Shown here one piece after another: positions 15,791 to 61,491 of a stretch of 64,000 bases of DNA. Under the pieces are notes generated by a model. The model was not told where the DNA came from. It did not search any database and saw only the letters and a list, made by a program, of their open reading frames with translations. A program made the position numbers and the translations under genes. The DNA is from Monocercomonoides exilis PA203 (taxonomy: Eukaryota; Protista; Preaxostyla), in assembly GCA_001643675.2 (NCBI GenBank), contig LSRY02000040.1, positions 434,001-498,000 of the forward strand, read 5' to 3'. Each line of letters begins with the position of its first letter. Position 1 is the stretch's first letter.

Positions 15791-17205
15791 ATGCAGTCAA
15801 CGAGTAGAATCAAAAGGTTTAATGGTTTGTGCTCATTATTGTATTTAAATTCATGAAAATTGATTTCTTTTTTCTTTTTTTTATATCAGAATTGCTTTGT
15901 GAACTTGAACATTGCAGTGAAGATGAACAAAGAAAGAAAATCGGAGAAATGAATGAAATAGTTGATAGGATGAATGAAGAAGAACATAAATCTGTTTTCA
16001 CAACAAGAATGTTCGACAAAATATACAAAATGATTGAAGAAAAGAAAATGACAATGGAAAATGCAATTTTGCTGCTGAAGTGCATTGGATACTGCAAAGA
16101 GTTGAAAAACATGTGGAGTAGTGGTTTTAATGATTCTGAAATAAGAAGAAGATTTGAGAAGATGATTTATGAAGAAGAAAAGAAAAAAGAAGAAAAGAAC
16201 AAAGGGCTTTTGATTGATCTTTGCGAATGCTATCTTTTATTGAACTCCTCGGATTCTCAGGAATTGCTTACAACTTGCGTGCCTTGCCTTCTGAAAGCTG
16301 CATCGGTCAAAGAGGAAAGCGAGGAAGTTCAAACAGAAGTGGAAATGGCTTTGCTAGCTTTGAGCGGAATGGGACATTGTGTATGAACATTGTTATTTCT
16401 TTTTTGATATTATTGCTATTTTCTAATTTTTAATTAGTTTTTAAGGCAAGAACTATATTTGAAGGAAATTACAGAAATCATCAAACATCAGCAGAAACAC
16501 AGAAATCTTACGCATCTGGCCTATCAATCTGCTTGGCAATTTTTAATATACAGATTCTTCAATGATTACAGCTTGGAAGATAGTATTGTGAATGAGCTGC
16601 ATTTAGCGGGAGAAGCAGCAAGAGAACTGGAAGTGCTAACAAGAAACGTGAATTGGAAGAAGAAAGAAGGAGAGGAAATGAACAAAGAAGAAGCGAAAGA
16701 AGAATTTGCTTTAACGAAATGGGTCGAAACAATCGTGATTTATTTTCAAAGTTGTCTATTGAAGAATGAAGAACTTGTTGGCCTTTTCAGCAGCATTTCT
16801 TATGTATATCGAGCAGCGAAGGATAATTACAGCGTTATTAGCTATTGGTGCATTTATTCCTTGAGAAATGCAGCAAATTTGAGATTTGTGAAAGTTTATG
16901 ACTTGTTGAAAAGCGGTGCTATTGATGTTGTTTTGGAAGAGATCCAGAGACAAACATTGAATGAAGGCAGGACAAATGAATGCTTTCAATTCTTAATGAA
17001 TGTTTCAAGGAAATTGAAAGAAAAGACGGATAACAAAATGGAAGAAGTTATAAGAAAGGCAACGAAAAGGAAGGTTTTTGTTAAGATGGAAGAAGAAGGA
17101 TACGAAGATATCATCACCAGCTTTCATAAAACTTTAGAGTTTTTGAAAAGAAATTATGATCATTTCTTTCCGAAAAAAATTTCAGATTATTTTGTGAATG
17201 TTTGA
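15791..17205 (+). CDS. Lineage-specific hypothetical protein, family copy 4 (3 exons)
   Basis: Exon 1 MQSTSRIKRFN|GT (alternative in-frame ATG at 15725), exon 2 ELLCELEHCSEDEQ...LSGMGHC|GTATGA, exon 3 = ORF 16459-17205. Confidence 0.8.
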
Positions 17206-18266: not shown

Positions 18267-20935
18267 GGCAAGTTCCAAGAATATGGACCATCGAAAATAA
18301 TATCTTCACACTTATTGAACATCAAAAAATATTATTATAATTAATTATAAATTAGTTTTATCTGTCGAAAATATTTCGTACAAAACATTGTTTTTCATTG
18401 TTTGATCTATCCCATATTTATATTTTTCTTATTCTGAAAACAAAAACTAACTTGCAAGCGGGATACGCTGCGAAGACGCTTATCAATCTTATTTGAGTGG
18501 TTCCATATATTATTGTCTTTTGCTTACTGTTGATATTATGTATTGTTTTTTGCAAAATAATTGAGAATTTTGATATTTGTATTCTGTTTGCTTTTTTTAT
18601 TGATACATATTGCAAGTACTTTTTTTGTACATGTTATTTGTGAATATTGTCATTCATATGATTCAATATGGGTAACAACAAAAGAGAATTCATAGTTTTG
18701 AACTTCTTTTTTCTTTATTTCATTTCTCGACAAATAATAAATATATTTTGTTCTTTTTAAACTTGACAAATCTCTTCACATGCATTTATCACTTTTTTTA
18801 TTAATTATTATCATTATTTGTATATTGAATGAAGAATTTTACAGGTTGCATTAAAGAATATTTTTTGTTTCATTTTCCGTTTCTCAAATATTTTTCGTAA
18901 TTTCTTCCATTAGTAAGGTCCAATCTTTCATTGATTTTTTTCACCTAAAAATGTTTCAATTGTTTTGGAGCGTGAAAATTGCTTTATAATCAATATGAAA
19001 AACACTTCAATTTTTGAATAACACATTTTCTTCTTCTTCATTAATATCTTTGTTTTTATTCTCTGTTTTCATCTCCACTTTCCTTCACAACTTTCCTGGA
19101 GAAATTTCCTTCAAAAATATCTCGAGTTCATTTGGATTTTTTTCTGATAATGAATTCAACAATTATTACCAATTCATCTATTTTTTTCTATTGCTTTTTT
19201 CATATTGCAACCAATGAATTTGAATCAATTAATTCAGTGAATAATAATAAAGAAAATGTTTATTTCAATATTCTTGAACACCGTATATTCCTTTTTCTTC
19301 CTTTTGCGTGTTTTTCATTTCCATTTTGCTTGATCTCGCTTCTGTTAAAAAAGTAACATGTGACATTGTTATTGTTTAGTAATTCTTACAAACTATATCT
19401 AACACTAAATCTCAATTTCTTCATTTGTTCCAGTCCTTTTTTCAAGAGATGTATTTGCTCATTCTTCCACCATTCATATATTTCTTTGTTGAACTCACAT
19501 GTTGAAATCTCTTCTCAATCTCCTATCCAAAAGATCGCCTTTGGAAACAGAATATTTTGGATCAGCAACTCGCTTTTGGCAATGTTATACAGGCTGTCTT
19601 CCTCATCTTTCATCTTTATTTCCTTTTACTGTTGAAAGGACAAGCATGTTTCTTTTTCAGCTGTCACACCTTGAAAACGGTTCTCTTCTTCCAGCATCAA
19701 AAGTCGAGGATTTTCCTTTGCTGTGAACACTCCATTCAAGGACCTTATTTCCCTTTCCTCCTCTGATATGTTTTCCCTTGAAAAAGATAGTGATCCCTCC
19801 AACAAAGAAATTCATTCTGAAACTTCCTTCCTGTTTGTTGGACGATTTTTCCACATCTTTCATAATTTGAAAAGCTGGAAACCTCATCCTAACTATTCCT
19901 TGTAACTCTTATCCTCTTTCCTTCTTCCTCTATCCGATCAGCGATTCCTAATTTGCTTTTATCCATCTTTTCTGTAGTCCTTTTATATCCTCAAACTCAA
20001 TTAAGCTGTTTGCTGTGCTTTTCCTGTTTGTATTTAGTCTGTAACCCACAATGTGCGATATGTGCTCCTGTCTTTCACCAGCATTCAAACACAGCTGTTG
20101 TTCTCGCAACATGATGTGATAAAAATATATTTTCATTTCAATCTTAATATTTAAACATCCCTCGTTCTTCCATCCCTAATAAAAAAATCCTATTCAGCTT
20201 TCTTTTCATCCCTTCCAACAAATGGCTCCTCCTCAAAGACCATCACATCAAACTCTTCCCTGATTCCTATCCTTTTCCCAATTGCTGTTCGTATCTTCAC
20301 GCACCATTCTTCCTTTTGCTCCACATCTTTCCTGAGATTTCTTCAATGCTTTTCTGGATTTCAGCAATGTGCAACATTGTCTAACATTTAAGATATTGAT
20401 ATTCGAGTATTTGAATATTATATGAAATACAAATAAACATTTAACATCGTTATAGCCGGTATTTTCAATTGTTAAAGTCAACTATTGACTTTGAAATTTG
20501 TTCGAAACAGTAATTCAAAACATATTACAATCACAAAGAATGACATGGATTAAACGAAAAGTACACTGGTATTAAAATAATTTCGCAAAGATATTCAAAA
20601 AAGAAAAAAGATAGAAAACTTAATTTGTAACAAATTTCATCAGATCTTGAAAATTCAAAAACATAAAGTTAGCAGTCAGTGAAAGACAATAATATATGGA
20701 ACCACTCAAATAAGATTGATAAGCGTCTTCGCAGCGTATCCCGCTTGCAAGTTAGTTTTTGTTTTCAGAATAAGAAAAATATAAATATGGGATAGATCAA
20801 ACAATGAAAAACAATGTTTTGTACGAAATATTTTCGACAGATAAAACTAATTTATAATTAATTATAATAATATTTTCTAATGTTCAATGATTGTGAAGAT
20901 ATTATTTTCGATGGTCCATATTCTTGGAACTTGCC
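18267..20935. mobile_element. Non-autonomous Merlin-type TIR element with ~254-bp TIRs and decayed cargo
   Basis: 18267-18520 is the near-perfect reverse complement of 20682-20935 (termini GGCAAGTTCC...GGAACTTGCC). Flanks TATTTTTG / TTTTTTTG resemble an 8-bp TSD with one mismatch. TIR is homologous to the Merlin end at 21646. Confidence 0.85.
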
Positions 20936-38623: not shown

Positions 38624-39652
38624 TTAGATCTTGTTTGTTTTCATCCATTCTGGTATTTCACTTCCGACATTGCTTTTCCAATGATCTGCCATTGTTTTTC
38701 CTTCCCTATCAGAAAGTGTGATATCATGTCTCATCCATTCTGGGGGTTCTGTCTTGATATTAGTAATCCAGCACATTGCCATTGTAGCTCCGTTTTTATC
38801 GGCAAGAGTTATGTCATGTCTCATCCATTCTGGTGGCTCAGATTTCTGATCAATAAGCCAACGAATAATCTTTGCCCTATCTTCTTTATCAGCAAGTTTC
38901 ATTTCGTGCTTCATCCATTCTGGCTGTTCTTTTTCCTTGATTCCAATCCAGTGCATAGCCATCGTCTTTCCATCTAGATCTCCAAGTGTTATATCATGTC
39001 TCATCCATTCTGGAGGTTCTGTTCCTTTACTCCAAATCCACCACATGGCCAAAGTTCTTCCGTCCTTATTTGTGAGTGTACTGTCGTGTCTCATCCATTC
39101 TGGTGGCTCAGTTTTAATGTAATATATCCATGACATGGCAATCGTGTGCCCACCCTCATTAACGAGCATATTATCATGTCTCATCCATTCTGGTGGCTCT
39201 GTTCCAACACAATAAATCCAAAACATGGCCATCGTATGACCATAATTATCTGTAAGTGCACTATCATGCTTCATCCATTCTGGTGGCTCTGTCTTGACAA
39301 ACTGAATCCACGTCATCGCCATTGTATTTCCGCCTTTATTGCCAAGTGTGATATCATGCCTCATCCATTCTGGTGGCTCTGTCTTCACTTCTTGAATCCA
39401 GTGCATAGCCATTGTTTTTCCATCTTCACCTTTAAGCGAATTTTCATGCCTCATCCACTCTGGAGGTTCAGTTCTAGCATATTTAATCCATATCATTGAC
39501 ATTGTATTTTCATTCTTGTTGCTAAGTGAAAATTCGAGCTTCATCCATTTTGGTGGATCACATTTCTTCTTTGTTTGTAAACTGTTCGTGGTTGCCTTTA
39601 TCTCAGAGATCTCTCTATTCACAGTTGGATCAATGCGTAATTCGCTTTTCAT
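38624..39652 (-). CDS. Intronless 342-aa protein of eleven 30-aa tandem repeats (GxTMAMxWIxxxKTEPPEWMRHDxxLxxxx), ankyrin-like
   Basis: tcatcca(t/c)t recurs at an exact 90-nt period from 38641 to 39541; the frame is open throughout. Confidence 0.85.
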   Translation of the reverse strand: MKSELRIDPTVNREISEIKATTNSLQTKKKCDPPKWMKLEFSLSNKNENTMSMIWIKYARTEPPEWMRHENSLKGEDGKTMAMHWIQEVKTEPPEWMRHDITLGNKGGNTMAMTWIQFVKTEPPEWMKHDSALTDNYGHTMAMFWIYCVGTEPPEWMRHDNMLVNEGGHTIAMSWIYYIKTEPPEWMRHDSTLTNKDGRTLAMWWIWSKGTEPPEWMRHDITLGDLDGKTMAMHWIGIKEKEQPEWMKHEMKLADKEDRAKIIRWLIDQKSEPPEWMRHDITLADKNGATMAMCWITNIKTEPPEWMRHDITLSDREGKTMADHWKSNVGSEIPEWMKTNKI

Positions 39653-42600
39653 ATGAATTTAATAATAATAATGCAACTGTTTGCGATGTTACAAATAAAA
39701 TAAATTCAATCAAATGCAATTCAATAATTTAAATATGGGACAATGAAACAAAAGATTTGTATTTGAAAGATAAAGAGAAAATGGCTCATAAAATTCTTTA
39801 GATTAGGCCTTTGCTACAAGGAAAAATAATACGATGATTGTTTGTCGAATAACGAAACTTGTGTCGAGGGTTTTTTTTTTTAATTTTTTAATCAGATGTG
39901 GAAATTCACAATGAATTTTTTCTTTTCGTACTTTTGACTGAACAAGGTTCTTTATTAAAATTCAACAAATATGTTTAAAACATTTTTCATGTTCAAAAAA
40001 GAACATTTGCTCTTTCAAAAACACATATCAAGTGAAATATCATCATGCAATCTTTTAAAACTTACAAAATTCTGATGAGAATACTGTTATTTGCATTGCT
40101 TGATTATGCGATTATGAATAAAAATCGCAATCAAACCCAAAACAAAAATGAAAATGAAATTCAAAGGAATCAAACAAATAATGAGAAACATCAAGATTCA
40201 GAAATGAATTTTACAAATTATTTTAGAAACGGATAATTTCACATCGTTGCACATATTCATTCGTGAAGTCTGTTCATTTCTTTCTGCATCACTAAATGAC
40301 TTGAAAAATCACCACTAGTCAACTGTAGTTAACCATTGATAAGAAACTGAATCGTATTGTGAAATTTGCAATAGAAAAATGAGTAGCTGTTAGCGGATTG
40401 AAGAAAAAAAATGTGTCTTTCTCAATAAAATAGAAAAAAGAGAAATCACTGTATTCGTATTGGTTCAGAGAAACGATGCCAGAGTAACTGATTAAAGCTA
40501 AGATATCAATGAGTTGCCCAAACTGACTTTTCACGAAGCAGGAAAAGAGGAGATCCATTTTAAGTTTCAATGACAGAGGAGAGACAGAACCGGATCTCAA
40601 AGCAGCTTGATATTTCGATATGGAACTTTTGACTGGATAAACAGTATCAAACAGCTTCAGATTACTCTTTATGCAATGTGAAAAGCCAGCAGATTCGTAA
40701 GCAACTTATTCAGATTGAAGCAAATAAGTTGCACGCAACGAAACACACGAAAAGATAAGACAGTTACCAGTTGTAAAGGCTTATGAACGAAAGAACAAGC
40801 AGAAAAAAGGAGCTTTGAGAAAAAATGATGAGTACCTAACAGATTGAACTGAGTGCTCTGTTAGAGATGAGGCTTATGCTTTGGTGATTCTTCTGGTTCA
40901 AGTATCCAAAGTAATTCCCCTCTTCTGCTAAATTGCCTTCTCGTTGTAATTTAAAGATGGGCACATAGAACAAAGCAATGATCCCATCTTTCCTCAGTTC
41001 GCTATAGATGGAGTATCCAGCCGAGAAGGAGCACAAAACGAGAAAATTGTGAAATCTTCCCATTGCCTGCCTTTGGTGACTGTGTGATAATTTGTACGCT
41101 TTATGCTGCTGGTTGGACAAGTATTCATTCAACAATGAACGAGACAACTTGGCATATGTAGAAGTAACTTACTGCAAAAGTCCCACAACATTCTTCACTT
41201 TTCAAAAAGCGATGAATAATTTCAGATAATTTCTTTCTTTGTTTGTTAATCTGGCTCTTCCAGAAAAACCATTTATCTATCTCAACTTCCTTTTTCGAGC
41301 TCTTCATAGCACATCTTAAGTCTGAAGAAACATTTGTAAATGGAGCAAACCCCTCCGCTGAGTCTACTGAAAGGTTGATTTTCGACTTGAGAAGCAGCTG
41401 AGGCTTTTCGAAGAAGTCCTCTTTATGCCTCAAACCAGCTGCGAAGATGAGCCTCAAGTTCGAACGGATGATCGCATTCTCCATATAAGATGAGTCTTTC
41501 AGTGTGCATGATGGAGGATATGTTTTTTTAAAAGGTGGTCCCTGTGTTGCAGTTTGTCATAAGCCCTTTCCAATCACAGGTTCTGCTGATGAATGAATAC
41601 CAATTTCCACACATTCACAAAGAATACAGCATCGATCGCGATGAGTTGGTCGAATGTTGTTGTCTGAATGATGAATAAGATGTGTGCATTGTGGCATGAA
41701 GCATTTCTCAAGGAGAAGTCCTCTGTTCAACACACGAATAACCGCTTGGTTCCCATCACGATCGTGTTTATTTTCTTCTTCAACTTCTTCGTTTCAACCA
41801 GATGCTTTCATAACGTGAAAATCTTCTTTCTAACTCTCTCTTTCTCTTTTTTTCTCCAAAAAAATTCATCTTTTTTCTTTCTTTAGCTTTTTCCTGAATA
41901 ATATGCTTTACGGTATTTATATTGATGTTTCTTCGGCTCTATTCACAATCTCGTTCACATTTTAATTCTCTTTGTCCGTTCTGCCTCTATTGTCTGCTGT
42001 GTGTTTGATTCGCCATGCCACTTCAAGAATGTTGATTGAAGTTGACTTCATAACAGAGTCGAAAGATGTTGTGCTTGAACGTTGTATCTCTTCCATTCAG
42101 GTCATCAAAGTGATAGCTAAAGAATGGATATGAATCAACAAACTTATTTCGTTTGGATAAACATCAGCATGAGAAAGCAAGTGGATTTGAAAAAAGAAAG
42201 AAAAAGAAAAAAAGATTACAAACCAAAATCAGTTCATCCTTGTATCAGTATATAAATCGTCTGTTGATCTTGGATCTGCTTTGGAAACTTGTGGCGCTCT
42301 CTCTCTTTGGCTGTCTTACGGTTATATTGATAAAGAATCAGGAAGCAATTGATGAATGACTCTCATTTCTCACTAGCAGCTCGTCTTTTCTTGTTGGCTA
42401 GCTGTTCGAATATGAGGTGCTCGCAACAAACAACTCAGAAAGAATAAAAAGATACACTTTGTCAGATAAAGCTTTGCATATTTGCTTAGAAGGATGCGAA
42501 TGGATGTACACTTTTGTGGTCTTGGGCTTCATGACTTGATCGAAGATATGGGGCAAAATATTTTGCTTCAAGCTTTTTCATTGAAAAAATATGCACTTTT

Positions 42601-43135: not shown

Positions 43136-44005
43136 GTAGACAGTGAGGTCTCAGTTCATGAATCTACATGTTTTAGTCCTGTGTTTGATTCTGAATGATC
43201 AGAAGAAAAAGAGAAAGAAGATTGATAAATTTGAATTGCGTAAAAACCGATCTAACTTTTTTTTGGTTGCTGATTCAGTTTGTGATCAAGCTTCATATCT
43301 TCGTGTAAAAACCCCTTGCAGCGTGCGTGTGAGAAGGTCAGCGACAACCAATGTGAATTTTCTCATGCTGATGATATCAATACCCAATCATCTGCTTATT
43401 TTTGTAACAAATTTTCTAAAAGCTTCAGTGATGAATCTTTTTTAAAAACATACAAATTATTTCTTAATTAGAAATACTCATTAATAACATAAATTCAAAC
43501 TATTCTTCTTTTGAATCTTTTCATTCTTCTTTTTCTGTTCAAATCAGCTGAAGAATTACAGAATTCTATGTTATTTACGAAATTCGTAGATTATTCCAAT
43601 TTATATTTTAATGAATGACTTTCACTTCCATATTAATAATTATTAAATGAAAATCAAATTGAATTGAAAATTATCTTCATTAGCAGCAGCATACACAATA
43701 TATAATATGGCTGATCCATTTTGATATCACACTTTCGTTCAAGTTTTAATCCAAATTTTAATATCAATGGGATTTTTGTAATAAATTTGTTTATGCAATA
43801 ATAACATCACGAACAACATGTATTATCTGTTCAAGTTCATTTTTTTTAAATCCCATTGAAAAAAAATTTAGATCAAAGCTCGAACGAAATAATGATTTTA
43901 AAAAGGATCAGCCATATCTTCTATTCATATTCATTACATTAAAAATAAAAACAACGATTTCATGCAAACCTTTCAAGAAAATTATCCGGTTATTTCTTGG
44001 TACAG

Positions 44006-44356
44006 ATATCGCATAAATACCGGACAAGATCGATATCACAATAACTGTAAGAAGAAAAATTCTGACTATCTTCCTCAAAATACATCTCATCAGTACAAAC
44101 TCATTTGATAAACGAGGCTTAATGAATAGCTTCATTTGCGCTCAGAATAAAATATTTTTAAAATCTCAGAAAAACTCAAAATCCTATTTCTCTGAGATTT
44201 TAAAAACATTTTATTCTGAGCGCAAATGAAGCTATTCATTAAGCCTCGTTTATCAAATGAGTTTGTACTGATGAGATGTATTTTGAGGAAGATAGTCAGA
44301 ATTTTTCTTCTTACAGTTATTGTGATATCGATCTTGTCCGGTATTTTATGCGATAT
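44006..44356. repeat. Long palindrome: ~165-bp arms with a 20-bp spacer
   Basis: 44006-44170 is the reverse complement of 44191-44356 with one substitution and one 1-bp indel; mirrored ORFs 43908-44135 and 44132-44392 reflect this. Confidence 0.95.
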
Positions 44357-46079
44357 ATGTATATCGTGTTTGTTACCAAATTTCATAATCAAATAATAGT
44401 TGTGGATTTCAATTCAATCGTTATTTTTGAATCACAATGTTAAAATATTCACATATATAAACTGAAATAGTGTGAAACAAAATTCTCCTTTCCACTAGTG
44501 ATAAATTTATTAAAAAAGTTCAAGCACTCAATTCAAAATTCATTTCAATCAATTAATCATTTTTCAAAATATAATTTGAAAAAATTGAAATGAAAATCTG
44601 TTTTAAAAAAGAATATCCATTCGACTGATGGATCTTTTCACCAACTGATCTTTCGATCGACTGATCTTTGTCGGTTAACTGATTTTGACAAAGATCTGTC
44701 GATAACCCATTGACAAATTCAAAAATAAATGAAGAAAATATTTGTATGTTTATCTTTTCATGAAAATTTTATAAATTATTAATTCAAATAATATTTTAAA
44801 GAAAATAGAAAAACGAAATCATATTAAGAACGTTTTTTTTTGTCAATCAGTTTGTCAAATTCAAGCTGATTGTTTTGTCGGTCGGCTTGTCGAGACTTAA
44901 AGTGAAGAGTCGGTTTGTCGCAGAGGCCAATTACTGATATTGACGATATTATTGGCGAAAAAATCGAAGGAGAGAAAACTGAATCAGAAAATGACAATGG
45001 ATCAGGAGAAGGTGAAAATGCATCAGAATATGAGTCCAAAAATTATTGCTGATGATTATTTCACATCATTTTTATCATTGACTACTTTTTTCATATAAAA
45101 TAAATGGAAATAAATCACAATAAAAAAGTCATTTGGGGAAAAATACAAACTTTCAAGCTTAATATGCACAAAGCATGAAAAATTTGATTCACTTATAACA
45201 TTTTTGAACTTACCCAGATTATAAAATAAATTTGATTTTCATAACTGGAAACAAACATCATTGATATAATAACATCATGTTTTGTGACATCAAACCTATT
45301 TCAAAAAAAATAAACACATTTATTTCGAAAATTTTGTTATCAAAAAGTTCATCAATGATGCATAATATTTAAATGAAAATGCCTGAAGTCAAATATTTTG
45401 TCCCAATTGTCGAAATTCAGTGAAATGGAAAAAGAAATAAAAAAAAGAAGTGTTAAACGATGAAAAATAGCCAAAATTGTAAAGAAGTTATGTTCAATAA
45501 CAATGACAATACTTAAAAATCTCAAAACAAAAAGCTCGTGAAAATACGAGCAAGTCTTTGATCAGAAAAATAAAACAAAATACACCAGATCTTTTCACAA
45601 AAATTGAAATATGAAAAAATATTTTCAGAAATAGTATATTATCATATATTAATAATTTTCTATTATTTATTTTTTTCGAAAAGTGCTCCTGTGAGCCAGA
45701 AAATTTAGGTCCCGACTAATTTTTTGGGTACCGATAAATTTCTGACCCTGCTATGTTTGTTCACAATGAAACAGAATAATTTCATTGAAAAATGATATCA
45801 TAATAAATTTTTACAGTTAAAATGATTGATTCTTTAAGAAAGAAGATTACTGTGAAGTGCTATGATGATAAAAGAACATTGCAGCTATTGAGAAATATTT
45901 GAAAATTTTCGTGGATTGTTTTATATTATATCTGAAATTTTTGTTTTTTCTTATATTTTTTGTGATTATTATTATTTGTCTCAAAAACCAAAAATTTTGA
46001 TGAAACAAACTTCACATACACCCAATCCTTCAGGCTGCAACAAAGCACAAGTGCAGAGAAAGTTTGAAAAAATGCTCAT

Positions 46080-49455: not shown

Positions 49456-50870
49456 ATGCAGGAGATGGACAACACAAAGAAGTTCACTGGTGTGCAGGGA
49501 TCGTAGATGAAATTTTTTTGATGATTATTATTTTTCAATTTTCATTTATTTTATGAAGAATTGTTTTCCCAGTTGGGCAGCAACTCAGCCGATGAGCAGA
49601 AACAGAAAATCGAAGAAATGATTAGCATAGTAGATGAAATGAATGAAAGAGAATTCAGATCTGTTTTTACAATGGAACTGTTCAATGAAATGGACAAAAT
49701 GATTGAAGAAAGGAAGCTTTCGATGGGAAATGCATTCGTGCTGCTGAAACATATTGGATATTTGAAAGTGTTGAAAGATATATGGATTGATAGATTTGAT
49801 AACTCTCCGTTGAGTGTCAGATTTGAAGAGATGATTGTTGATGAAAATGAGAAGAAAAAAGAAGAAAAGGATGAAAAGCTTTTGACAGATCTCTGTGAAT
49901 GCTTTCTTGCACTCAGTAACTATTCTTCATCAAAATTGCATTCAATCTATGTGCCTTGTCTTCTGAAAGTTGCACAAAAGAAAGAGAAAAGCGTGGAGAC
50001 CCAAAAAGAAGTGGAACTGGCTTTGCTTGCTTTGAGCAACATTATCTATTTTGTATGAGTACTTCTATTTGATTTTTTAACATTTTTATTTTTCTATCTT
50101 CTTTTTTTAAGAAAGTTTGTGAAGAACTGTATTTGAATGAAATGACAGAAATCATCAAATATCACCAGGATAATCAGAATCTGACACGACTTGCCTATCA
50201 ATCAGCTTGGCGGTTTTTGATGTTCAGATTTGTAGACGAAAAAAAGTTGGAAGACATGATTGTGAATGATCTGCATTTTGCAAGAGAAGCAGCAAAAGAA
50301 CTGGAAGATCTGTCAAAGAGTATGGATTGGAAGAGAAAAGAAGAAAGAAGAAAAGAAACAAAAGAAGAGCTCACTTTGATGAGATGGTTGCAAATGTTGG
50401 TTTCTATTTTATATTCATGCGAATTATGGAACGAAGAATTTGCTGGGCTTTTAGGCAGTATTGACCAGGTGCTTCTGACAGCAAAGGATAAAAGCAGAGA
50501 AATTTTCTTCTTGTGTGTTTATTCATTCAGAAATGCAGCAGAAAATAGAGATGCGAAAGCTAAATACCTGTTGAAAGGTGGAGCTGTTGATGTTATTTTG
50601 GAGGAGATTCACCAGTTAACAATGAATGACAAACTGGCTAGTGAAAGCTTCCATTTCTTTTTGAATATTTCAAGGCGATTGGAAGGAAAGAAGGATGATG
50701 AAAAGGAAGAGGAGGAAAGAAAAGAATTGAAAAGAAAGATATTTGATAAGATGGAAGAAGAGGGATACGAAGATAAAATCACAAGTTTTTTTGAAACATT
50801 TGATTTTTTCAACAGAAAATATTATAGCAAATTATCAATAATTATTTCTGATTATTTTTTGAATGCTTGA
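49456..50870 (+). CDS. Lineage-specific hypothetical protein, family copy 5 (3 exons)
   Basis: Exon 1 MQEMDNTKKFT|GT, exon 2 = ORF 49561-, exon 3 = ORF 50133-50870; family motifs present. Confidence 0.8.
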
Positions 50871-51317: not shown

Positions 51318-52737
51318 TTAATCAGAAAAATTCAAAGATAATCCACGATAAAGTATACAACGAAGAGAAATGACTCCATGAAAGCTAATGATAACATTTT
51401 CGCAATCTTCTTCTTCCATCCTTTCAAATATCTTTCTTTTCATTTCTTTTCTTTCCTCCTCTTCCTTTTCATCTTTATTCTTTTCTTTCAACCGCCTTGA
51501 AATATTCAAAAAGAAAAGAAAACAATTCCTTATCAAATCATCATTAATTGTTGGCTGCTGAATCTCCTCCAAAACAGCACCAATAGCTCCGTTTTTCAAC
51601 AATTCATCAATTTCCACATTTCTATTTTCTGTTGCATATCTAAGTATATCGAAGTATCTATTGTGAATATCTTTGTGATTGTCCCTTGATGCTCGTAACA
51701 CTTGAACAATGCAATTGATAAGACCAGCAATTTCTTCGTTCCACAATTTGCACGAGGTAAAGTAATTATCAATAGCATAAATCCATCTCTCGATAACAAG
51801 CACTTCTATTCTTCCATTTTCTTCTTCATTTTTATTCCAGTCTAAATACTTTGATAGATCTTCGATTTCTCTTCTTGCTTCTCTTGCGAAATGCAGTTCA
51901 TTCACAATCACTTCTTCCAAGCTATCGACTTTGGGAAATCCACAAATCAAAAACTGCCAAGCCAACTGATAAGAAAGCCGTGTCAGATTCTGATGTTCCT
52001 GGTGATGTTTGATGATTTCTTTGATCTCATTCAAATACAGTTCTCTTTTCATTTCCTATGCAAAAAAGGAGGAAAAAACAATTCAGCAATATCAAAATGG
52101 GAAAAAGGTTTTCAAACCCAATATACAATATTGCCCAAAGCCAGCAACGCCATTTCCACTTCCTTCTGAGCTTCTTCGGTCTCGTCTTTCTTCAATGCAA
52201 CTTTCAGAAGGCAAGGCACAACAATTGAAAGCAATTTTTTTGGAATGCTTCCTTCAATCAGCAAAGCAAAACATTCACAAAAATCAGTCAAAAGCTTTTC
52301 ATCCTTTTTCTTCTCATTTTCATCAATTATCATCTCTTTCATCCTTTCGCTCAATAATGAACAATAAAAAGAATATAAGAAAATCTTTTTCAGTACTTTG
52401 CAAAATCCAGCATGTTTCAACAGCAAGGTTGTTCTTTCCAATGACAATGAATTTTTTTCAATCATTTGGTGGATTTTATTGAAGCACTCTTTTGTGAAAA
52501 CTGTTTGAAATTCTTTTCTATTCATTTCATCTATCATTCTTTTCATTTCCTCCATTTTCTGTATTTGTTCGTCTTCTCTACAATGTTCCAGTTCGCAAAA
52601 CAATTCTGCAAATAAGTTTCAAAATACAAAAATTTTGTTCAGAATTGGTCAATCCAAATTAAAGAACAAACTTGAAAACTGTTCTGTTTTAGTCATCATC
52701 TCCGTTCGTCTTCAGATATATCATTTGTCAAACTCAT
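51318..52737 (-). CDS. Lineage-specific hypothetical protein, family copy 6 (possibly decaying)
   Basis: ORFs 52112-52603 and 51318-52052. Exon 1 MSLTNDISEDE is frameshifted relative to copy 2 (rescue ATG at 52699), and a TAA replaces the conserved Tyr of SDYFVxV. Confidence 0.7.
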
Positions 52738-54100: not shown

Positions 54101-55709
54101 ATGAAAACTCGACTTCCTTGTTCTTTCATCTCAAGTGAGCACACGAATTCAACAAAGAGAGACGATTGAAAGGAATAGGCAATAATCAATAGAGGAAGTT
54201 CCCCTGATAAAGATGCTTGATGAAAAGGATGAAGAAAAGATGATAGTGAAACAGAGAGAAGAAAATGAAGAGGAGGATTCTTTCCAGATGATTTTCATCC
54301 ACAACAGTTTCAGTCAGGTTATCGAGAAAGGAAACGAGCTTTCAGTCTTTTTCATGATTTTTGCGAAAGGGAGACGTTGAATGGAAGAACAATATTGAAA
54401 ACTTCCCACTCAAAGGAAGCTGAATGGAATGATTTAAGTGTGTTGCATTTTTCATTCAGCGGAAGACCGAAGAAGATGATTGAGGTACTTTTAGGGAGAG
54501 AAAGATGAAAAAAATAAAGAAGCTGTTTGTGACAAAATTCTTTTCGATGTTGAGGAAGATAGATTGTCTTTAATTTGGATGAAGTCCATGTTGGAGGAGC
54601 AGGGGAATTCTGGTTGTTGCACACAATAAATTGAAATTCACTGTTTGAGAAAGAGATGGAAGTGAAGATGGTGCGGAAGAGAAGTGAGAAAATAACACTT
54701 TCTATTTGATTGAATTCAACAAACAAAACAAATATTCTGAAATGGTTTCTGATGAGGAAGAAAAAGAAACGGAAGAGTGAAAGAAATAGCGAATTTTGAC
54801 TGGCACTTTCTTTGCTTTAGTCCACATATGTCTGTGCCTTGAACATCATCGTGAAGGCACTATCAATCTGAAAAATCATTATTTATTCAACTTTAATTCA
54901 AAAATAAAAATCAAATGAGAGTTATTCCAGATGTTATTCAATTCTGTCTTTTTTCCGCTTTTTCGCAATCGAAAAAATTCTTGAGTTCTCAGAACATAAC
55001 AATTATGAAAATTAGAAAACAACAATAACAAAATCAAATGTTGCACTTATTCACTCGTTATTAAAGCGTTTGTGCAACTTGTCTCTCAAAAACCCAATTC
55101 GAAATAAAAAAATGCACAATTTTTTATTCAATATTCCAAAACTTTTTATTCATATAAAATCAAATTGTTATTCTTTTTTTAAAAATTGTAAGAAATTAAT
55201 TGTTCACTGGCTGTACGCCGAAAAGTTATTTTGATATTCAATGTTGTAATAAATCGTTTAAAGGATGAGAAATTGGATTAATGAAAATATTTGTTTCAAT
55301 ATAACATAAAAATAAAACATTTAAAGATATGGCATATCGGCTATAGATCCATCTCGATTAAGATCAATCAATATTATCGATTTATGTGTATCTGGTGGTA
55401 GTTATCATCTTATGAAATAAGTTGGAATAGGCAATGATAATAAAATAGAGATCGAAGTTGTTGCTGATATTCTTAGGGGTTATCATGATTTGATTTTCAG
55501 TGAAGTTCAATAAAGATGGAGTTATTGATAAGTGCAATCGAGATATATCCATAGCTGACATACCATATCTCCAAGGAGAAGATTAGCTACAAGATTAACT
55601 GAAAGATTAACCGGAGTGTTGAAGATGGTGAATTAGTGTGAAAATTGGTATTATCGTTGATGAAAATTGCAAATGAAATTAATTGATTAAGTTTTTTGTT
55701 TTATAGTAA

Positions 55710-55934
55710 ATGGGTCGGAAGAAGATATACGCAACTGTGGAAGAAGCGAAAGCGGCTCAACAGAAACAAATTAAACAGTTTCAGGAAAAACGGAGAGAAG
55801 AAACTATGTATTACAACGAACATGTATCTGAAAAACAGAAGAAGTTAATTAAGATATTGAGAAGAAAGCTCATCGAAAGAGATGAGCTGTTCGATGAGAT
55901 GTTGGAAAAAGTTAATGAATATTTGCCTGCGTAA
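55710..55934 (+). CDS. Small basic helical protein in the left TIR (74 aa)
   Basis: MGRKKIYATVEEAKAAQQKQIKQF...; intact and near-identical at protein level to the right TIR copy despite several synonymous differences. Confidence 0.7.
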   Translation: MGRKKIYATVEEAKAAQQKQIKQFQEKRREETMYYNEHVSEKQKKLIKILRRKLIERDELFDEMLEKVNEYLPA

Positions 55935-56404
55935 TGTTAATTGAACGGTTAATGTGGAAATTGACAAATTATAACTTTTGACGAACGTTTGTTGTATCGT
56001 CACATGTATAAAACAGTTGTCACGATGGTATAATAGTCGATTGCCAACATCTACAATTTTTCACGAAAAAGTATGAATCTGTGGACAGGACACAGAATTG
56101 TGGCAATATCTGAGGCTCAGTTGAAGGGAAATATTAATTTATATCTACGTACTGGAAGCGTAGTCAGGTAGTCAAGTAGTCAGGATCTTTAAATTTCATC
56201 TGAAAAGATATGCCAACATACCATTTCTGCCAACATGTGTGTTTTACCCCCAATTTGTCATGATTTTGATGTATATTTGTTTTTCAATTAGTGTTGTCAT
56301 TTTGCCACATTACCACATGATATCGTTGATGGTGTATAACAGTTGGCACACATCAGTTGTATTGTTTTTGTTTAAATGATTCCAAGAAAACAAATATGTT
56401 TTGT

Positions 56405-58742
56405 TTATTTCCACAGAACAGTCCATGTCATCTTCATCTTCTAATTGTTTGAGGAGTTGTTCATACTCTGGCTTGAGTTTTTAACACCACACTTGGTTTC
56501 CTCTTCCACCTCCTCGTATTCTCTCACATCTGTCTTTAATTGCTTGTTGGAATGAGAGATCGTACTTGTATTCAACTGTTCTGAAACATAGTGCTTCAGA
56601 ACATCTCCACACTTCTTTGTGCTTATTGTAATGCTCTGGACAGAACACATCGATGACAGAGAGTGACGTTGCAATAATATCTTCTTTTGCTTCCGTTGTC
56701 GGAATAGCCCTTGTGTTGAAATTGGTGAGATCTTTGCTGATGAAATAACAGAGAAGTTGTTCATTGAATTCATTGTTGAAAAAGTTTGTGAAATCCTAAA
56801 AGAATGTGAGATTGTTCTTGTATTTTGAGTTTCAATCACAAACAACATATCTTCTGTCGCCAATCTCAATTTTAACTGGGTATGTGTGATTTGTCACAAA
56901 TATGAAATTAGCTACTCTCTCAGCTGTTCTTCTTGGCTGATTCTTCTCATTGATTCTGATTGTTGAATCCGTGATTATTCTCTTCAATGCATCAAAGTTA
57001 GCTGTTCGATCATCTCTAACATTCTTCAATTCGTCGAGTACAATCAGCATTTTCCCTTCGACGATGGAGTTGAACTGTCCTGTCAGTTCTTCAATCTCTG
57101 TGACATTTGGACACGAATATCCTGCCAACAGTTCAGTGAGTGCATTTGTCCAGACGTTCTTTCTTATTCCTTGCAAACCTTTGAGAACAAGTGACGTTTC
57201 TGCTTTTTTCCCAGGATTTTGAACAATTGACACAATCCAACAGAGGATATATTGATAGAGTTCTTCGTTGTTGTTAGCGATAACTTCTCGTGTGAAATCG
57301 AGGAATGGTTTGATGATTTCGTCATTTTGTTCGTTTTCCATTTCGTATTTGAACACATGGAACAGAGAGAATATTCGAGGGTTATCTGAGAAAAACTTCA
57401 TCTCATCGATCGATAGAACATGAGAGTATTATTCGAAAGCTGTCTCAACTGTGAGAGTCTTTTTGTCATCATGCCAGAGTTTTATTGTTTTGAACAGTTC
57501 GCACATTGCTGATATTGTCTTGAATGTTATCGAATAACAAGAGGTGTGAATGTCAGACTCTTTCACAATGAATTCCATCCTTGCTTCAACAAATCTTAAA
57601 ACTTTTGTGTGATCTTCAGCAACTTTAGACAGTGAGGAGTATTGTTTTCGATAAGCTTTTTCCCTGATTTCAGAGTACGAGAACGATGAGTTGAGATCTT
57701 CTTCATGAACAGTAATCTCTCGTGGAGGTTCTTCCTTTTGCTCATTCTCTTTTCTGAGGAATGGAATGATCACATCGCTGTCATTTGTTGAATTCCATCT
57801 CTTGACAATCTTTTGGAGAACATATGAATGTGACGTGTTATCTCTGGATCGGTTTCGTTTCTCTTCACAGTGAGTGATTGCATTTGCTGCAAGAGCAGCT
57901 GTCTCTTTGATTTGAGTGTTAAGAAAATCTTTCGATTCGTTGTCGAAACCATCAATGTTGACGAGAGAATTGAGAGCTGCAAATAACTGTAAAAGAGTTA
58001 ACTCAGAATCAAGTGACAAAGAACCTGTAACGTTATGAAAATCAACATCTTTGAGTCCATCAACAAGAGCAAGATCGACGGTTGGAGACAAATCAACGAT
58101 TCCATCTTGTGTGAGAAGATTGTGTGGTTCAGCTGCCATTGTCACCGATGAACTCTTTGTTTTGAGGTCAATACCGAAAATGTCAAGAACACTCTCAAGT
58201 GATGAAAGATCTCTGAGCTCTCTGTAATTGTTGAGGGGAATGCATTTGGTGATGATTCTCTTTCCATCTTTCATTTCTCTGTATGAAGAGTCAGCTTGAA
58301 CAACAAGCCTTTGTTTTCCATCTCCAATACCTGCAAAAATGTCGACATCGAACTCCTGACTCGCAAACACTTTGGTTTGAGACGAACATTTGAGAGGATA
58401 ATCACACAGCTCACAATAAATAAGAAGACCACCATGAGCTGTTTGCACAAGTCAGACGTTTCGGTGGAGTTTTTCGAGAATGGAATTCCTGATGGTTTTC
58501 GTTTGTTCATCTTGAAGGGATTTGTTGATGTCAACATCAACGACACAAAGATCCTCACATTTGCTGATATCGACAGCTGTTCCAGTGTGTCGTTTGTCCT
58601 GCTTCTTGTCAGAGTATTTCTTGAAGTCGAACAAATCAACAAAGTGATCTTTCATTCGTTCTCCCATCGTTTGCTGTTCTGTTGACATTGAATCAATTTG
58701 TTGTTGGATTACGTTGTCAGAGTCTGTTTGGGTGAATGCCAT
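56405..58742 (-). pseudogene. AEP prim-pol fused to D5-like superfamily 3 helicase, ~780 codons, five in-frame stops
   Basis: Single frame across ORFs 58452-58742, 57429-58448, 56832-57401 and beyond. AEP motifs LCVVDVD and VQTAHGGLLIY; Walker A LKGLQGIRKN, Walker B LIVLDE, motif C FIFVTN, Arg finger DRRY. Stops at 58452, 57429, 56832, 56796, 56481. The 3' end is approximate. Confidence 0.85.
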
Positions 58743-59023
58743 TTTATAAAAATTTAAAAAAAAACAAAATTATTTTGAAAAAGATTCATTTTTGAAACGT
58801 AAATTTACGGGAAATATGTTGTTGGGGTTTATGTCGAAAATAAACGACAACAGTTAATTTTCACAAACAATGTATTTTGCCCAATCTGCTCACTTTGACA
58901 GATTGCCCATATATTTTGGAGAATGAAATTGACCTATTCCACACTGTGCACACTGTGCAGATGTTAAAGCACAGAGATTTAATTCAATATTTCCACACCA
59001 CAGCATCATAATTATCTGCCCAG

Positions 59024-59254
59024 TCAACCCTGTGCAGGCAAATAACCATTAACTTTTTCCATCAACTCATCTAACAACTCATCATTTTCGATAAGCTTTC
59101 TCCTCAATATCTTAATCAACTTCTTCTGTTTTTCAGATACATGTTCGTTGTAATACTTAGTTTCTTCCTTTCGTTTTTCCTGAAACTGTTTAATTTGTTT
59201 CTGTTGAGCCGCTTTCGCTTCTTCCACAGTTGCGTATATCTTCTTCCGACCCAT
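59024..59254 (-). CDS. Small basic helical protein in the right TIR (76 aa)
   Basis: Inverted paralog of 55710-55934; intact. Confidence 0.7.
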   Translation of the reverse strand: MGRKKIYATVEEAKAAQQKQIKQFQEKRKEETKYYNEHVSEKQKKLIKILRRKLIENDELLDELMEKVNGYLPAQG

Positions 59255-60162
59255 TAACTATAAAATATAAAACAAAATCAATTATTTTTTATTTGCGATA
59301 ACACCAACGATAACACCAACACATTCAACACATGTTCAACACATATCACATTCAACATACAACACATGTTCGCATTAATTCACCATCTTCAACACTTTCA
59401 GCTAATCTTTTAGCTAATTCTTCTCCTTGGAGATATGGTATATCAGCTATAGATATATCTTGATTTCACTTATCAATAACTCCATCTTTATTGAACTTCA
59501 CTGAAAATCAAATCATGATAACCCCTAAGAATATCAGCAACAACTTCGATCTCTATTTTATTATCATTGCCTATTCCAACTTATTTCATAAGATGATAAC
59601 TACCACCAGATACACATAAATCGATAATATTGATTGATCTTAATCGAGATGGATCTATAGCCGATATGCCATATCTCTTCTTTTTCTCAGTATTTTCATA
59701 ATCCTCGAAATGTGATAATTATTATAAGAATTTGTGAAATACTGTAGAAGAATGCATCATTTTCTTGAAGGATATATAAGCATAGAAATGATTTCAGAAC
59801 AACAATATTTTACAAATTAAAAGTTCAGAAAATGTCTTAACGATTTTTTTAATTGAAATTATATATTTTTGAATTGTGAGAATTTTTTTTTGAAATTATA
59901 TTTTCTCAAGCAGAAAGTTTAATTTGAAAATTCTCTTTGAATGTCAACATGAAAACACTAAAAAATGAAAAGATTTATTCAAAATATCTTCATTTTCACT
60001 TCAACAAAAACATTAATTTTTGAAGCGATTTCGAAAATGATGGCATTTGAATACATAATCTCTTCCCTATGGCATGCAACCTTCGATAAATCAACATTCC
60101 GAAAAAAGTTATGATTTCGAAAAAAACCTCCCATTCAAATAATTCGAAAATATTTTATTGTG

Positions 60163-61139
60163 CTATCCATTTTCCTCTGACCTCTTTTTCACCACCGACC
60201 TTTTTTCATGTGAATCTTGCTCCAGCTTAATACGAGCTCGCAGCCAACGAAAAATGACGAGAAATGTTTATTTTAATAAATTTTACAATGAAGTTATAAT
60301 TTTTTAACGAATTTTTTTTCCCAAGAGATTTCCGTAATTTTAAATTTTATTTTTGATCATTAAATTGATAGTCTTTCCATGAGAATAACACTCTGGAAGT
60401 TGTAAGTTTCATCATCAGAGCTTGGAATATTCTTTTTATTGTTTTTATGACTTTTCACTTTTCACTTGTTTCTTTTTCACTTGTTTTCTCATTTCATCCA
60501 CTTTTCGAAATAATTAAAATATGAATTGGAATATAAACAATTGTTATATTTAATTAGCTGTATCTCATTTTTAAAATCATTATATTGTTGCACACTCATA
60601 TAATTTTTTGCCGAAAAAATGAAACTGGTTGGAAATATCAAAACTACTGAAATTGATGTTTTTCATTTTTCTATTTAAAATCAAATTTGTAAAACTTTTT
60701 TGTATACCAACATGATTAACATTTTAACATATATTAAGGATCATCTTATAATTTTTTACAAAAATTCATCATTCTTTAAAAATTTTAATTTTTTCGAAAA
60801 GTGGATGAAATGAGAAAACAAGTGAAAAAGAAACAAGTGAAAAGTGAAAAGTCATAAAAACAATAAAAAGAATATTCCAAGCTCTGATGATGAAACTTAC
60901 AACTTCCAGAGTGTTATTCTCATGGAAAGACTATCAATTTAATGATCAAAAATAAAATTTAAAATTACGGAAATCTCTTGGGAAAAAAAATTCGTTAAAA
61001 AATTATAACTTCATTGTAAAATTTATTAAAATAAACATTTCTCGTCATTTTTCGTTGGCTGCGAGCTCGTATTAAGCTGGAGCAAGATTCACATGAAAAA
61101 AGGTCGGTGGTGAAAAAGAGGTCAGAGGAAAATGGATAG
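60163..61139. mobile_element. Non-coding foldback/MITE-like element with ~358-bp TIRs
   Basis: 60163-60520 is the near-perfect reverse complement of 60782-61139; 261-bp AT-rich spacer; no ORF and no clear TSD. Confidence 0.85.
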
Positions 61140-61491
61140 TACAGAAAATGATTGTTTCTTCTACTTGAAAAACCTAAATTTGTTTGGGATTTGAAATTTC
61201 AACTGTTTCATGAAACTGAAACAAAAATGTTTTTTCAAAAGAGTTTTATATTTTGATATATAAAAAGTAAAAAACATTCAAAAAACATATTTGCAAAAAT
61301 TGCAATTTAGCAAATTTTACTTCTCAGAGTTTTTGAAAAAGAAACAAAGAAAAACGTGAAGTGACGCAAAATTGAAAGAAATTTAAACTTACTCGAAATA
61401 TTGATAAAAAATTAACAATTTCCAATTGTTTTTGAAAATTTGAAAATAAATCTAATTTCTTTCTATTTTTTAAAAAATGAATTGAAAGCTT

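Follow-up and report, generated by a model that had tools for sequence, protein, structure and literature searches.

A decayed copy of a multi-copy inverted-repeat element encoding a prim-pol/SF3 helicase in Monocercomonoides exilis, possibly an amplified Maverick replication module

Mavericks (Polintons) are bounded by long terminal inverted repeats (TIRs) that begin with AG, and their insertion generates a target-site duplication (TSD) of 5-6 bp. To our knowledge, every accepted group of eukaryotic DNA transposons encodes an enzyme that cuts or joins DNA. In Trichomonas vaginalis, TvMav1 has TIRs of 500-700 bp and TvMav3 has TIRs of 100-130 bp; TvMav3 contains a primase gene, DUF4108 and an A32 ATPase, and 91.8% of class-3 Maverick copies have the primase gene while 8.6% have a 'Poxvirus D5 protein' (PMC12289875 supplement 1). 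Transpovirons are presented, in the part of PMC11161782 devoted to them, as capsid-less linear polymerase-helicase elements that arose from Polinton-like viruses minus the structural module, with a protein-primed PolB (pPolB) and S1H (Tlr1-like), and as parasites of mimivirids. The relevant part of a 2026 preprint (bioRxiv 10.64898/2026.10.13.758929) hypothesises that AEP-SF3 modules without an integrase are mobile, and lists 11 related extra AEP-SF3 copies in Bodo saltans virus (BsV), together with EVE_QPMI01_83.

The element described here lies in a window of 64,000 nt from the oxymonad M. exilis PA203 (contig LSRY02000040.1). It occupies 55325..59676 (4352 bp, no strand assigned), exactly where the first-pass annotation had placed it, with termini AGATATGG...CCATATCT. 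Its arms, a left TIR of ~606 nt (55325..55930, + strand) and a right TIR of ~643 nt (59034..59676, - strand) that includes a 47-nt TG-rich stretch absent from the left arm, align at 87.3% identity across 646 columns (blastn) and, like those of Mavericks, are long and start with AG. The terminal 16-mer, with up to 3 mismatches allowed, has four matches within the window against 0.30 expected, a number reached in 0 of 100 shuffles. Divergence is unevenly spread along the arms: the outer 210 nt (55325..55534, +; 59467..59676, -) are identical in the assembly, with no single contig spanning that full length, and mismatches begin only at offset 211. The inner arms are 8% different (207 of 225 positions agree in the small-ORF portion), so the ends appear to have been homogenised late. 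The letters shared by the outer ends are unlike those in most other contigs of the family. Short-read contigs that start in unique flanks reach 30 nt past each terminus into the element and stop there, without a single difference, and assembly and short-read contigs likewise agree without difference in the two flanks, the two spacers and one half of the left small ORF.

At the outer end of either arm lies a 246-nt unit with an inverted repeat of its own, 35 nt in length. In the left unit (55325..55570, +) the two halves, 55325-55359 and 55536-55570, are 83% identical; in its mirror on the right (59431..59676, -) they lie at 59431-59465 and 59642-59676 and are 86% identical. As a single strand the left unit could fold back, with a predicted stability no better than that of shuffled sequences (MFE z -1.45, not significant). 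Flip-flop of the end unit was considered and set aside: the opposite-strand joints inside it have sides of only 36 letters, as short as the internal repeat itself, and do not demonstrate inversion. Rfam returned three matches, every one far below the gathering score. Inside the arms, the left spacer (55935..56372, no strand) is variable among copies, has low summed depth and joints, and contains three TGCCAACAT and two GTAGTCAGG repeats, while the right spacer, or upstream region of the replicase gene (58743..59023, no strand), is 89-167 nt shorter or different in other copies.

Between the spacers lies the one long gene, at 56373..58742 on the - strand. The annotation of a single gene of ~780 codons was right as to the frame, which runs for ~785 codons without a frameshift, but the copy is a pseudogene with five in-frame stops (codons 97, 438, 637, 649 and 754) and has lost conserved residues, among them H107 and the second glycine of Walker A. 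Random change at 5% of nucleotides predicts an 11% amino-acid change and a mean of 4.7 stops, matching what is observed: the window copy is dead, with ~5% neutral decay. Recoding of stop codons was rejected, three different stop codons standing where the paralogues have five different residues. Among the annotated M. exilis paralogues one of ten is full length, and that one has 16 private changes.

Intact paralogues of the window protein model as a pRN1/NrS-1-type prim-pol joined to an SF3 helicase and a winged helix. The AEP prim-pol domain (58155..58673, -; residues ~24-196) has D69, D71, H107 and D134 as family-conserved residues, and the AEP assignment made from motifs is borne out by the paralogue models, for which all of the top 12 Foldseek matches are AEPs and the pRN1 prim-pol 3m1m aligns with VIA Z 9.8 (rmsd 3.3, 151 residues). 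The helicase domain (56694..57401, -; residues ~448-683) had been called D5-type; it is indeed SF3, but is closest to the NrS-1 type (PF19263, E 2.6e-19; PDB 6k9c, E 2.4e-26; VIA Z 17.6, rmsd 6.3, 329 aligned for a paralogue model) and not to poxvirus D5 proper. Catalytic and Walker motifs are at least 90% conserved across 41 homologues. The C-terminal winged-helix-like domain (56469..56663, -; residues ~694-758) matches many winged-helix chains at Z 4.8-5.8, each weak alone; it is predicted to read the origin, by analogy with P4/SaPI-type primase-helicases. The same order of prim-pol, helical region, SF3 helicase and winged helix is seen in pRN1 ORF904, NrS-1 polymerase and SaPI/P4-type primase-helicases, which are the replicases of prokaryotic plasmids, phages and satellites; the phage matches cover less than 45% of the protein at 23-27% identity (12 listed of 488). 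Among the 50 structure matches listed there is no integrase, recombinase or HUH fold, which is not proof of absence; the window protein has no match to the HUH family, and residues ~200-370 are barely covered by fold matches.

The element also has a small ORF, duplicated in the TIRs as first reported and open in both arms. The left copy (55710..55934, +) encodes a basic, helical protein of 74 aa; the second (59024..59254, -; 76 aa) lies head-to-tail upstream of the replicase gene. Neither Pfam nor PHROGs gave a family match, and one homologue was found, MONOS_17995 (85%). A weak Pfam match to DUF4108 (E 0.2) drew no support from direct comparison with a DUF4108 protein encoded beside a relative of the replicase, and that identity was dropped. 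Atlas matches to the small ORF all score at or below 0.85 and serve as leads only. Between the arms no other frame of at least 60 aa has a plausible start, apart from frames overlapping the replicase gene. Together with the Pfam and PHROGs scans, this inventory upholds the earlier statement that integrase, pPolB and capsid genes are absent: no rve (DDE) integrase was detected in the replicase or either small ORF, a Pfam scan found no transposase domain, the sole long frame is the prim-pol/helicase and not a pPolB, and the coding space is insufficient for capsid, packaging ATPase and protease genes, none of which was found. The element thus differs from a cut-and-paste TIR transposon or MITE in having neither a transposase domain nor an exact TSD. 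It differs also from TvMav3 and the Maverick-like elements of gut protists, which at 10-26 kb contain integrase, pPolB, ATPase and capsid-like genes, whereas the window element has none of these in 4.35 kb.

That the family is multi-copy, as had been surmised, is evident from both annotation and read depth. The named proteins nearest to the replicase are from M. exilis itself, at 10 annotated loci on 8 contigs with 82-96% pairwise identity, and in four of four runs the gene's summed depth amounts to 16-73 times that of single-copy sequence (a rough estimate from one sample), which suggests tens of copies. Outer-arm contig depth, equally rough and from the same single sample, is 1.8-3.1 times that of the gene, near the twofold value expected if gene and ends travel together. 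The small-ORF half of the arms stands at 3.4-5.7 times gene depth, above the expected 2, so the small ORF may also sit in other, larger elements. Of the 15 contig joints listed (from 35), four run from the left spacer to the inner boundary of the arm and five from the region upstream of the gene to the right arm region, on a short side of only 30-66 letters; such joints leave no space there for further genes. No free end is listed among these contigs, which by their nature do not reveal the ends of molecules. On one other contig a small-ORF gene and a replicase gene have the consecutive accessions KAH7819005 and KAH7819006. The joints and this adjacency indicate that the compact layout is family-wide.

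The wider relationships of the replicase point to Mavericks. One relative, L003, is 36-40% identical to the window replicase and lies on a Maverick-like contig next to DUF4108 (E 5.7e-6), an A32-like ATPase and a PolB-like ORF. We take the last to be PolB from motifs seen by eye; searches of Pfam, PHROGs and PDB sequences returned nothing for it. All three relatives with readable context (L001, L002 and L003, the first two near-identical) are in Maverick-like arrays and none stands alone. The replicase is also 39% identical to a T. vaginalis protein cluster, presumably the curated TvMav3 primase; TvMav3 and L003 have in common with the window element both the replicase family and the bounding TIRs. 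A relative as close as L003 in such a contig places the enzyme in the metamonad Maverick gene pool. A linear plasmid- or satellite-like replicon was first proposed; the enzyme family does occur inside Maverick-like elements, which ties the element to Mavericks and not to plasmids or phage satellites. IMG/VR scans gave no relative, nor the exact terminal 24-mer. In prokaryote genomes one locus among 31 pattern matches was found, on a Maverick-like contig assigned to a gut MAG and probably not bacterial. Metagenomic homologues are mostly on contigs of 2.4-3.7 kb, a size that fits a compact element and would be expected anyway.

The reading that we prefer, at a probability of roughly 0.5, is that the locus holds one dead member of a multi-copy family of 4.35-kb inverted-repeat elements in which the replication module of a metamonad Maverick was amplified as a unit. 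A Maverick would have shed its capsid, pPolB and integrase genes before the module was amplified. We infer self-replication and the route of insertion: the winged helix may load the helicase onto the arm repeats, a linear copy would arise through priming and extension of DNA by the prim-pol, and the ends might be completed by fold-back of the 246-nt end unit or by pairing of arm with arm. Lacking its own recombinase, the copy would then be inserted into chromosomes through capture at breaks or template switching, either of which would leave no target duplication. Metamonads lack Ku/DNA-PKcs end joining, as described in the part of PMC8516963 that bears on this. After a single burst the copies would have decayed, and the outer 210 nt would later have been overwritten, one arm from the other; ordinary gene conversion in place explains the identical ends equally well.

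A less probable account is that the element is a non-autonomous Maverick derivative, in which one internal deletion spared the ends, small ORF and primase-helicase gene, and the pPolB and integrase of a helper Maverick copied and inserted it; the primase-helicase may then have helped or been a passenger. The AG...CT ends and 600-nt arms resemble Maverick ends, those of TvMav1 in length, and could have been used by an integrase. The Maverick-like setting of the relatives fits this account too, as do the TvMav3 copies with a primase gene or a 'Poxvirus D5 protein'. The portions of PMC10120064 Tables S1/S4 used here give six capsid-gene loci in the M. exilis assembly, which could be helpers. Less in its favour is the insertion site: at the window locus no exact TSD of at least 2 nt was found in the seven registers tested, a test of one pair of flanks of one old copy. 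Shifting the terminus 2 nt outward yields a TSD-like match at 4 of 6 positions (chance 0.08 per register, 26% for some register), and five contigs depart from the alignment at that very point, 2 nt past the arm-defined end; a decayed 6-bp TSD there requires 3 differences in 8 letters (P 0.02-0.04). A TSD could have been lost through ectopic recombination among copies. Against helper-driven mobility stands also the outer-arm depth, the ends being in no clear excess over about two per gene.

It is improbable that the copies are eroded full-size endogenous Mavericks or Polinton-like viruses, the compact form being one of several independent deletions and never a mobile unit. Every copy tested does look decayed, counts based on gene prediction would miss decayed capsid genes, and spacer junctions vary, with left joints at 56065, 56085, 56193 and 56362. 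Yet these four, among the joints listed, all fall within ~300 nt of the gene end and meet the same arm boundary at 59008-59023, a clustering that independent deletions of 10-20 kb are unlikely to produce; a small-ORF gene also adjoins a replicase gene on another contig, and gene copies in the tens compare with the six capsid loci in the tables cited. Least probable is a composite or artefact, with two 246-bp MITE-like units around an older inverted-repeat block or identical ends made by polishing: arm identity does end where the inner copy of the 35-nt repeat begins, and each arm does open with a repeat-bearing unit, but the outer unit does not form a free MITE family, its abundance not exceeding about two for each copy of the gene; short-read contigs show 0 differences from the assembly over the flanks, spacers and half small ORF named above; and the shared letters depart from those of most family members, whereas polishing against other copies would have pulled them towards the majority.

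Transpovirons are likewise capsid-less and reduced to a replication module, but as described in the part of PMC11161782 cited above they are pPolB-S1H parasites of mimivirids, whereas the window family is AEP-S3H, a replicase type shared with some Polinton-like viruses, and is present in tens of copies in a cellular genome. The putative mobile AEP-SF3 insertion sequences of the preprint resemble it in having an AEP-SF3 gene and no integration gene; as presented in the portion of that source used here, the BsV copies lie in a virus genome without flanking repeats and the EVE_QPMI01_83 example is single. The window family by contrast has long TIRs with internal end repeats, a duplicated small ORF, chromosomal dispersal and a datable burst. 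The preprint having already hypothesised such mobility, the M. exilis family would make the idea testable, as a concrete case in a protist that is in culture and has a long-read assembly. More tentatively, the family may represent a new kind of eukaryotic DNA transposon, whose prim-pol/SF3 protein copies it from fold-back ends and which inserts without integrase, transposase, HUH nuclease or target duplication, with tens of copies in an oxymonad, perhaps from two bursts, and possibly hundreds in Trichomonas. Spread by a primase-helicase alone, if true, would fill the AEP-side gap on the path from Polinton-like viruses to transpovirons; if a helper Maverick inserts it, the element, equipped with its own replicase, would be a satellite of endogenous Mavericks. 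Even then, the many 'Poxvirus D5' and 'Prim-pol' annotations in metamonads would be explained as mobile DNA. One near-intact paralogue, MONOS_12125, exists for study of the primase and of origin binding. A second M. exilis family, with MONOS_16521, 16067 and 16704, is 31% identical to that of the window, and the two are not sisters in quick trees built without bootstrap. About 600 related protein records from Trichomonas are catalogued as those of ordinary genes.

The element occupies 55325-59676 of the window, with ends AGATATGG...CCATATCT, and is bounded, as the first-pass annotation had claimed, by inverted repeats with defined termini, a left arm (55325-55930) and a right arm (59034-59676) that are 87.3% identical over 646 aligned columns. 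Its terminal 16-mer is matched at four places in the window (expectation 0.30), namely the two termini and two inverted inner copies, so that each arm opens with a 246-nt unit bearing a 35-nt inverted repeat at its borders. Each arm also houses an inward-pointing small ORF of 74-76 codons, in keeping with the reported duplication. The replicase gene runs on the minus strand from 58742 to about 56373; the claim of one gene of some 780 codons holds in that there is a single frame of about 785 codons with no frameshift, but five stops interrupt it. An ORF survey of the element found no room for further genes between the arms, which agrees with the claimed absence of an integrase or capsid gene.

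A Pfam scan of the replicase detected the helicase only (PF19263, E 2.6e-19), and a 20-sequence profile matched the NrS-1 helicase (E 2.4e-26) and, weakly, pRN1 ORF904 (E 0.54), upholding the SF3 assignment of the helicase fused to the prim-pol. Whether the N-terminal domain of the family belongs to the AEP (prim-pol) superfamily, as had been proposed, is settled in favour by a predicted structure, that of a paralogue's first 320 residues (pLDDT 89): its best 12 Foldseek matches are all AEPs, and in VIA it aligns with the pRN1 prim-pol (Z 9.8, rmsd 3.3, 151 aligned) and with NrS-1 (Z 8.1, rmsd 3.9, 141 aligned). A model of the intact, full-length Monocercomonoides exilis paralogue (pLDDT 78) aligns with the C-terminal region of NrS-1 (Z 17.6, rmsd 6.3, 329 aligned), and numerous winged-helix proteins match its residues 694-758 with Z scores near 5. 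Among 41 homologues, D69, D71, H107 and D134 are at least 90% conserved, as are the positions which we take to be Walker A, Walker B and the arginine finger.

The element is real and multi-copy. The closest named proteins are from M. exilis (82-86% over aligned columns), in which the replicase family has ten annotated loci on eight contigs, one of them full length. In four sequencing runs from one sample, which may be the window's own source and so is not independent, the summed contig depth of the replicase gene exceeded that of exact single-copy contigs by a factor of 16-73, in line with the host element family that had been claimed; relative to the gene, the outer arms stood at 1.8-3.1 times and the small-ORF half at 3.4-5.7 times. 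This is read as a copy number in the tens, summed depth being itself no measure of copy number. The inner, small-ORF halves of the arms (55584-56011 and 59008-59435) had summed depths 2.4-5.7 times that of the gene, against 2 expected. Among the 15 listed of 35 contig joints, four link positions 56065-56362 in the left spacer with the inner boundary of the arm (59008-59023), and five shorten the stretch from gene start to right arm; whichever the orientation, both sets connect element-internal DNA across a few hundred bases. Elsewhere a single contig carries the two genes, small ORF and replicase, under consecutive accessions; taken with these joints, this makes it likely that the compact layout is family-wide. 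A second M. exilis prim-pol/helicase family, with three loci, is 30-36% identical to the window's family and stands nearer to T. vaginalis; for its proteins P0211, P0217 and P0107 the identities are 30-33% to the former and 42-55% to the latter.

Decay was assessed over ten rows, the window copy and nine of the ten annotated paralogue loci (MONOS_6891 was left out). The window replicase departs from the majority at 71 of 647 columns; 11 of its 57 private changes fall in conserved columns, against 10.6 expected if change were blind to function, and for the remaining nine rows the count is 22 against 28.5. H107 and one Walker A glycine are lost from the window copy, and a simulated 5% random change yields both 11% amino-acid change and about five stops. 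Judged by its sequence, the window copy is a fossil, dead at this locus, and these counts and the fit of the simulation make the family look like the product of one burst followed by neutral decay. The small-ORF part of the arms differs at 18 of 225 positions, which fits two arms decaying independently, whereas the outer 210 nt are identical (P 2.5e-8 at that difference rate). All four listed sites in this outer tract at which other contigs differ read alike in both arms, the other letter being the clear majority at three and about half at one; the listed site at offset 266 differs between the arms. The shared letters indicate that one arm end was overwritten from the other once most of the decay had occurred, through either in-place gene conversion or the repair of ends in a late move. 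The identical tract ends at the start of the inner 35-mer, a coincidence that may be due to chance.

Domain content and anatomy suggest, with a probability of about one half, that a Maverick replication module became a stand-alone unit, copied by its own prim-pol/helicase and inserted without a recombinase. The winged helix and helicase would load on the arms, the prim-pol would make a linear copy, the ends would be completed by fold-back or arm pairing, and insertion would take place at breaks. Metamonads are described in PMC8516963 as lacking Ku-dependent end joining, so the joining would fall to an alternative end-joining pathway, to template switching linked to recombination, or to the AEP. 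The main rival, for which the odds appear distinctly lower, is that a helper Maverick carried out insertion and perhaps replication too; against it stand one missing target-site duplication (TSD) and no excess of ends over genes. In seven registers no exact TSD of at least 2 nt was found at the flanks of the single window copy. If the terminus is moved outward by 2 nt, the flanks agree at 4/6, as happens in some register by chance in 26% of cases; a decayed TSD would require three differences in eight letters (P 0.02-0.04 at 8-10% divergence). Five contigs diverge from the alignment at 59678 into unlike flanks (agreement 0.52).

The element is Maverick-related. Relatives with readable context were available at three loci, two of them (L001 and L002) near-identical, where a helicase-only relative has a Pox_A32 ATPase (E 2.4e-6) on one side and an HNH gene on the other. 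The form at L001 2-2876 has 499 aa and is without the primase domain, which can thus be lost in viral contexts. The third relative (L003) shares 40% identity with the intact paralogue and 57% with a T. vaginalis protein. It adjoins DUF4108 (E 5.7e-6), an ATPase that resembles A32 at a score below cut-off (E 0.002), and an ORF of 837 aa with PolB-like motifs seen by eye only, for which sequence-level searches gave no PolB family match. Its contig (L003 1-7938, and L005), Maverick-like in combining these genes with the prim-pol/helicase, comes from a gut MAG labelled Bacilli and is probably a mis-binned protist element. According to supplement 1 of PMC12289875, T. vaginalis class-3 Mavericks are marked by DUF4108, a primase gene and the A32 ATPase, and 8.6% of them carry a "Poxvirus D5 protein", possibly as cargo. 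The T. vaginalis clusters in the replicase family hold 198, 350 and 50 protein records; those listed bear ordinary gene names, in an annotation that counts genes without transposable elements. PMC10120064 gives six capsid-gene loci for the M. exilis assembly.

Gene content sets the element apart from Polintons, PLVs and transpovirons, and that it represents a recombinase-free class of transposon is a tentative proposal, less likely than not. A literature search of mainly open-access reach (Repbase and Dfam lying outside it) found no published description of the element; PMC8767320 reports 35% unclassified repeats, and "poxvirus" and "viral" occur 0 times in its main text. Mobile AEP-SF3 insertion sequences are already proposed in the text of a preprint (bioRxiv 10.64898/2026.10.13.758929), so the concept is not new. 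As far as the searches reach, a TIR-bounded chromosomal AEP-SF3 family is new within that literature, while the figures and supplements of the preprint may hold similar elements.

Other repeats and genes share the window. A 355-nt near-perfect palindrome (44004-44358, arms 99%) matches the element's terminal 12-mer at 11/12 on the left and 10/12 at the other end; a gapped 35-mer alignment over the whole window scores 26 against a shuffle-null mean of 27, so that only the location at the palindrome ends is suggestive, and the palindrome is possibly a gene-less relative. A 344-aa ORF (38624-39658, minus strand) with nine 30-aa tandem repeats (90-bp period) has no Pfam family, nor has the one copy scanned of a two-exon host gene family present six times in both orientations (570-1896, 6116-7460, 8640-9970, 15823-17205, 49525-50870 and 51318-52618). 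About 400-470 nt to the right of the prim-pol element begins a second inverted-repeat element (60078-61153; 412-nt arms, 94%, 181 nt apart), and high summed depth with many loose ends near 60077-60134 indicates another repeat family. A 2.7-kb element at 18267-20935, without a long ORF, has 292-nt TIRs (94%) beginning GGCAAG and T-rich flanks that match at 7/9, and presumably resembles a non-autonomous Mutator-like element.
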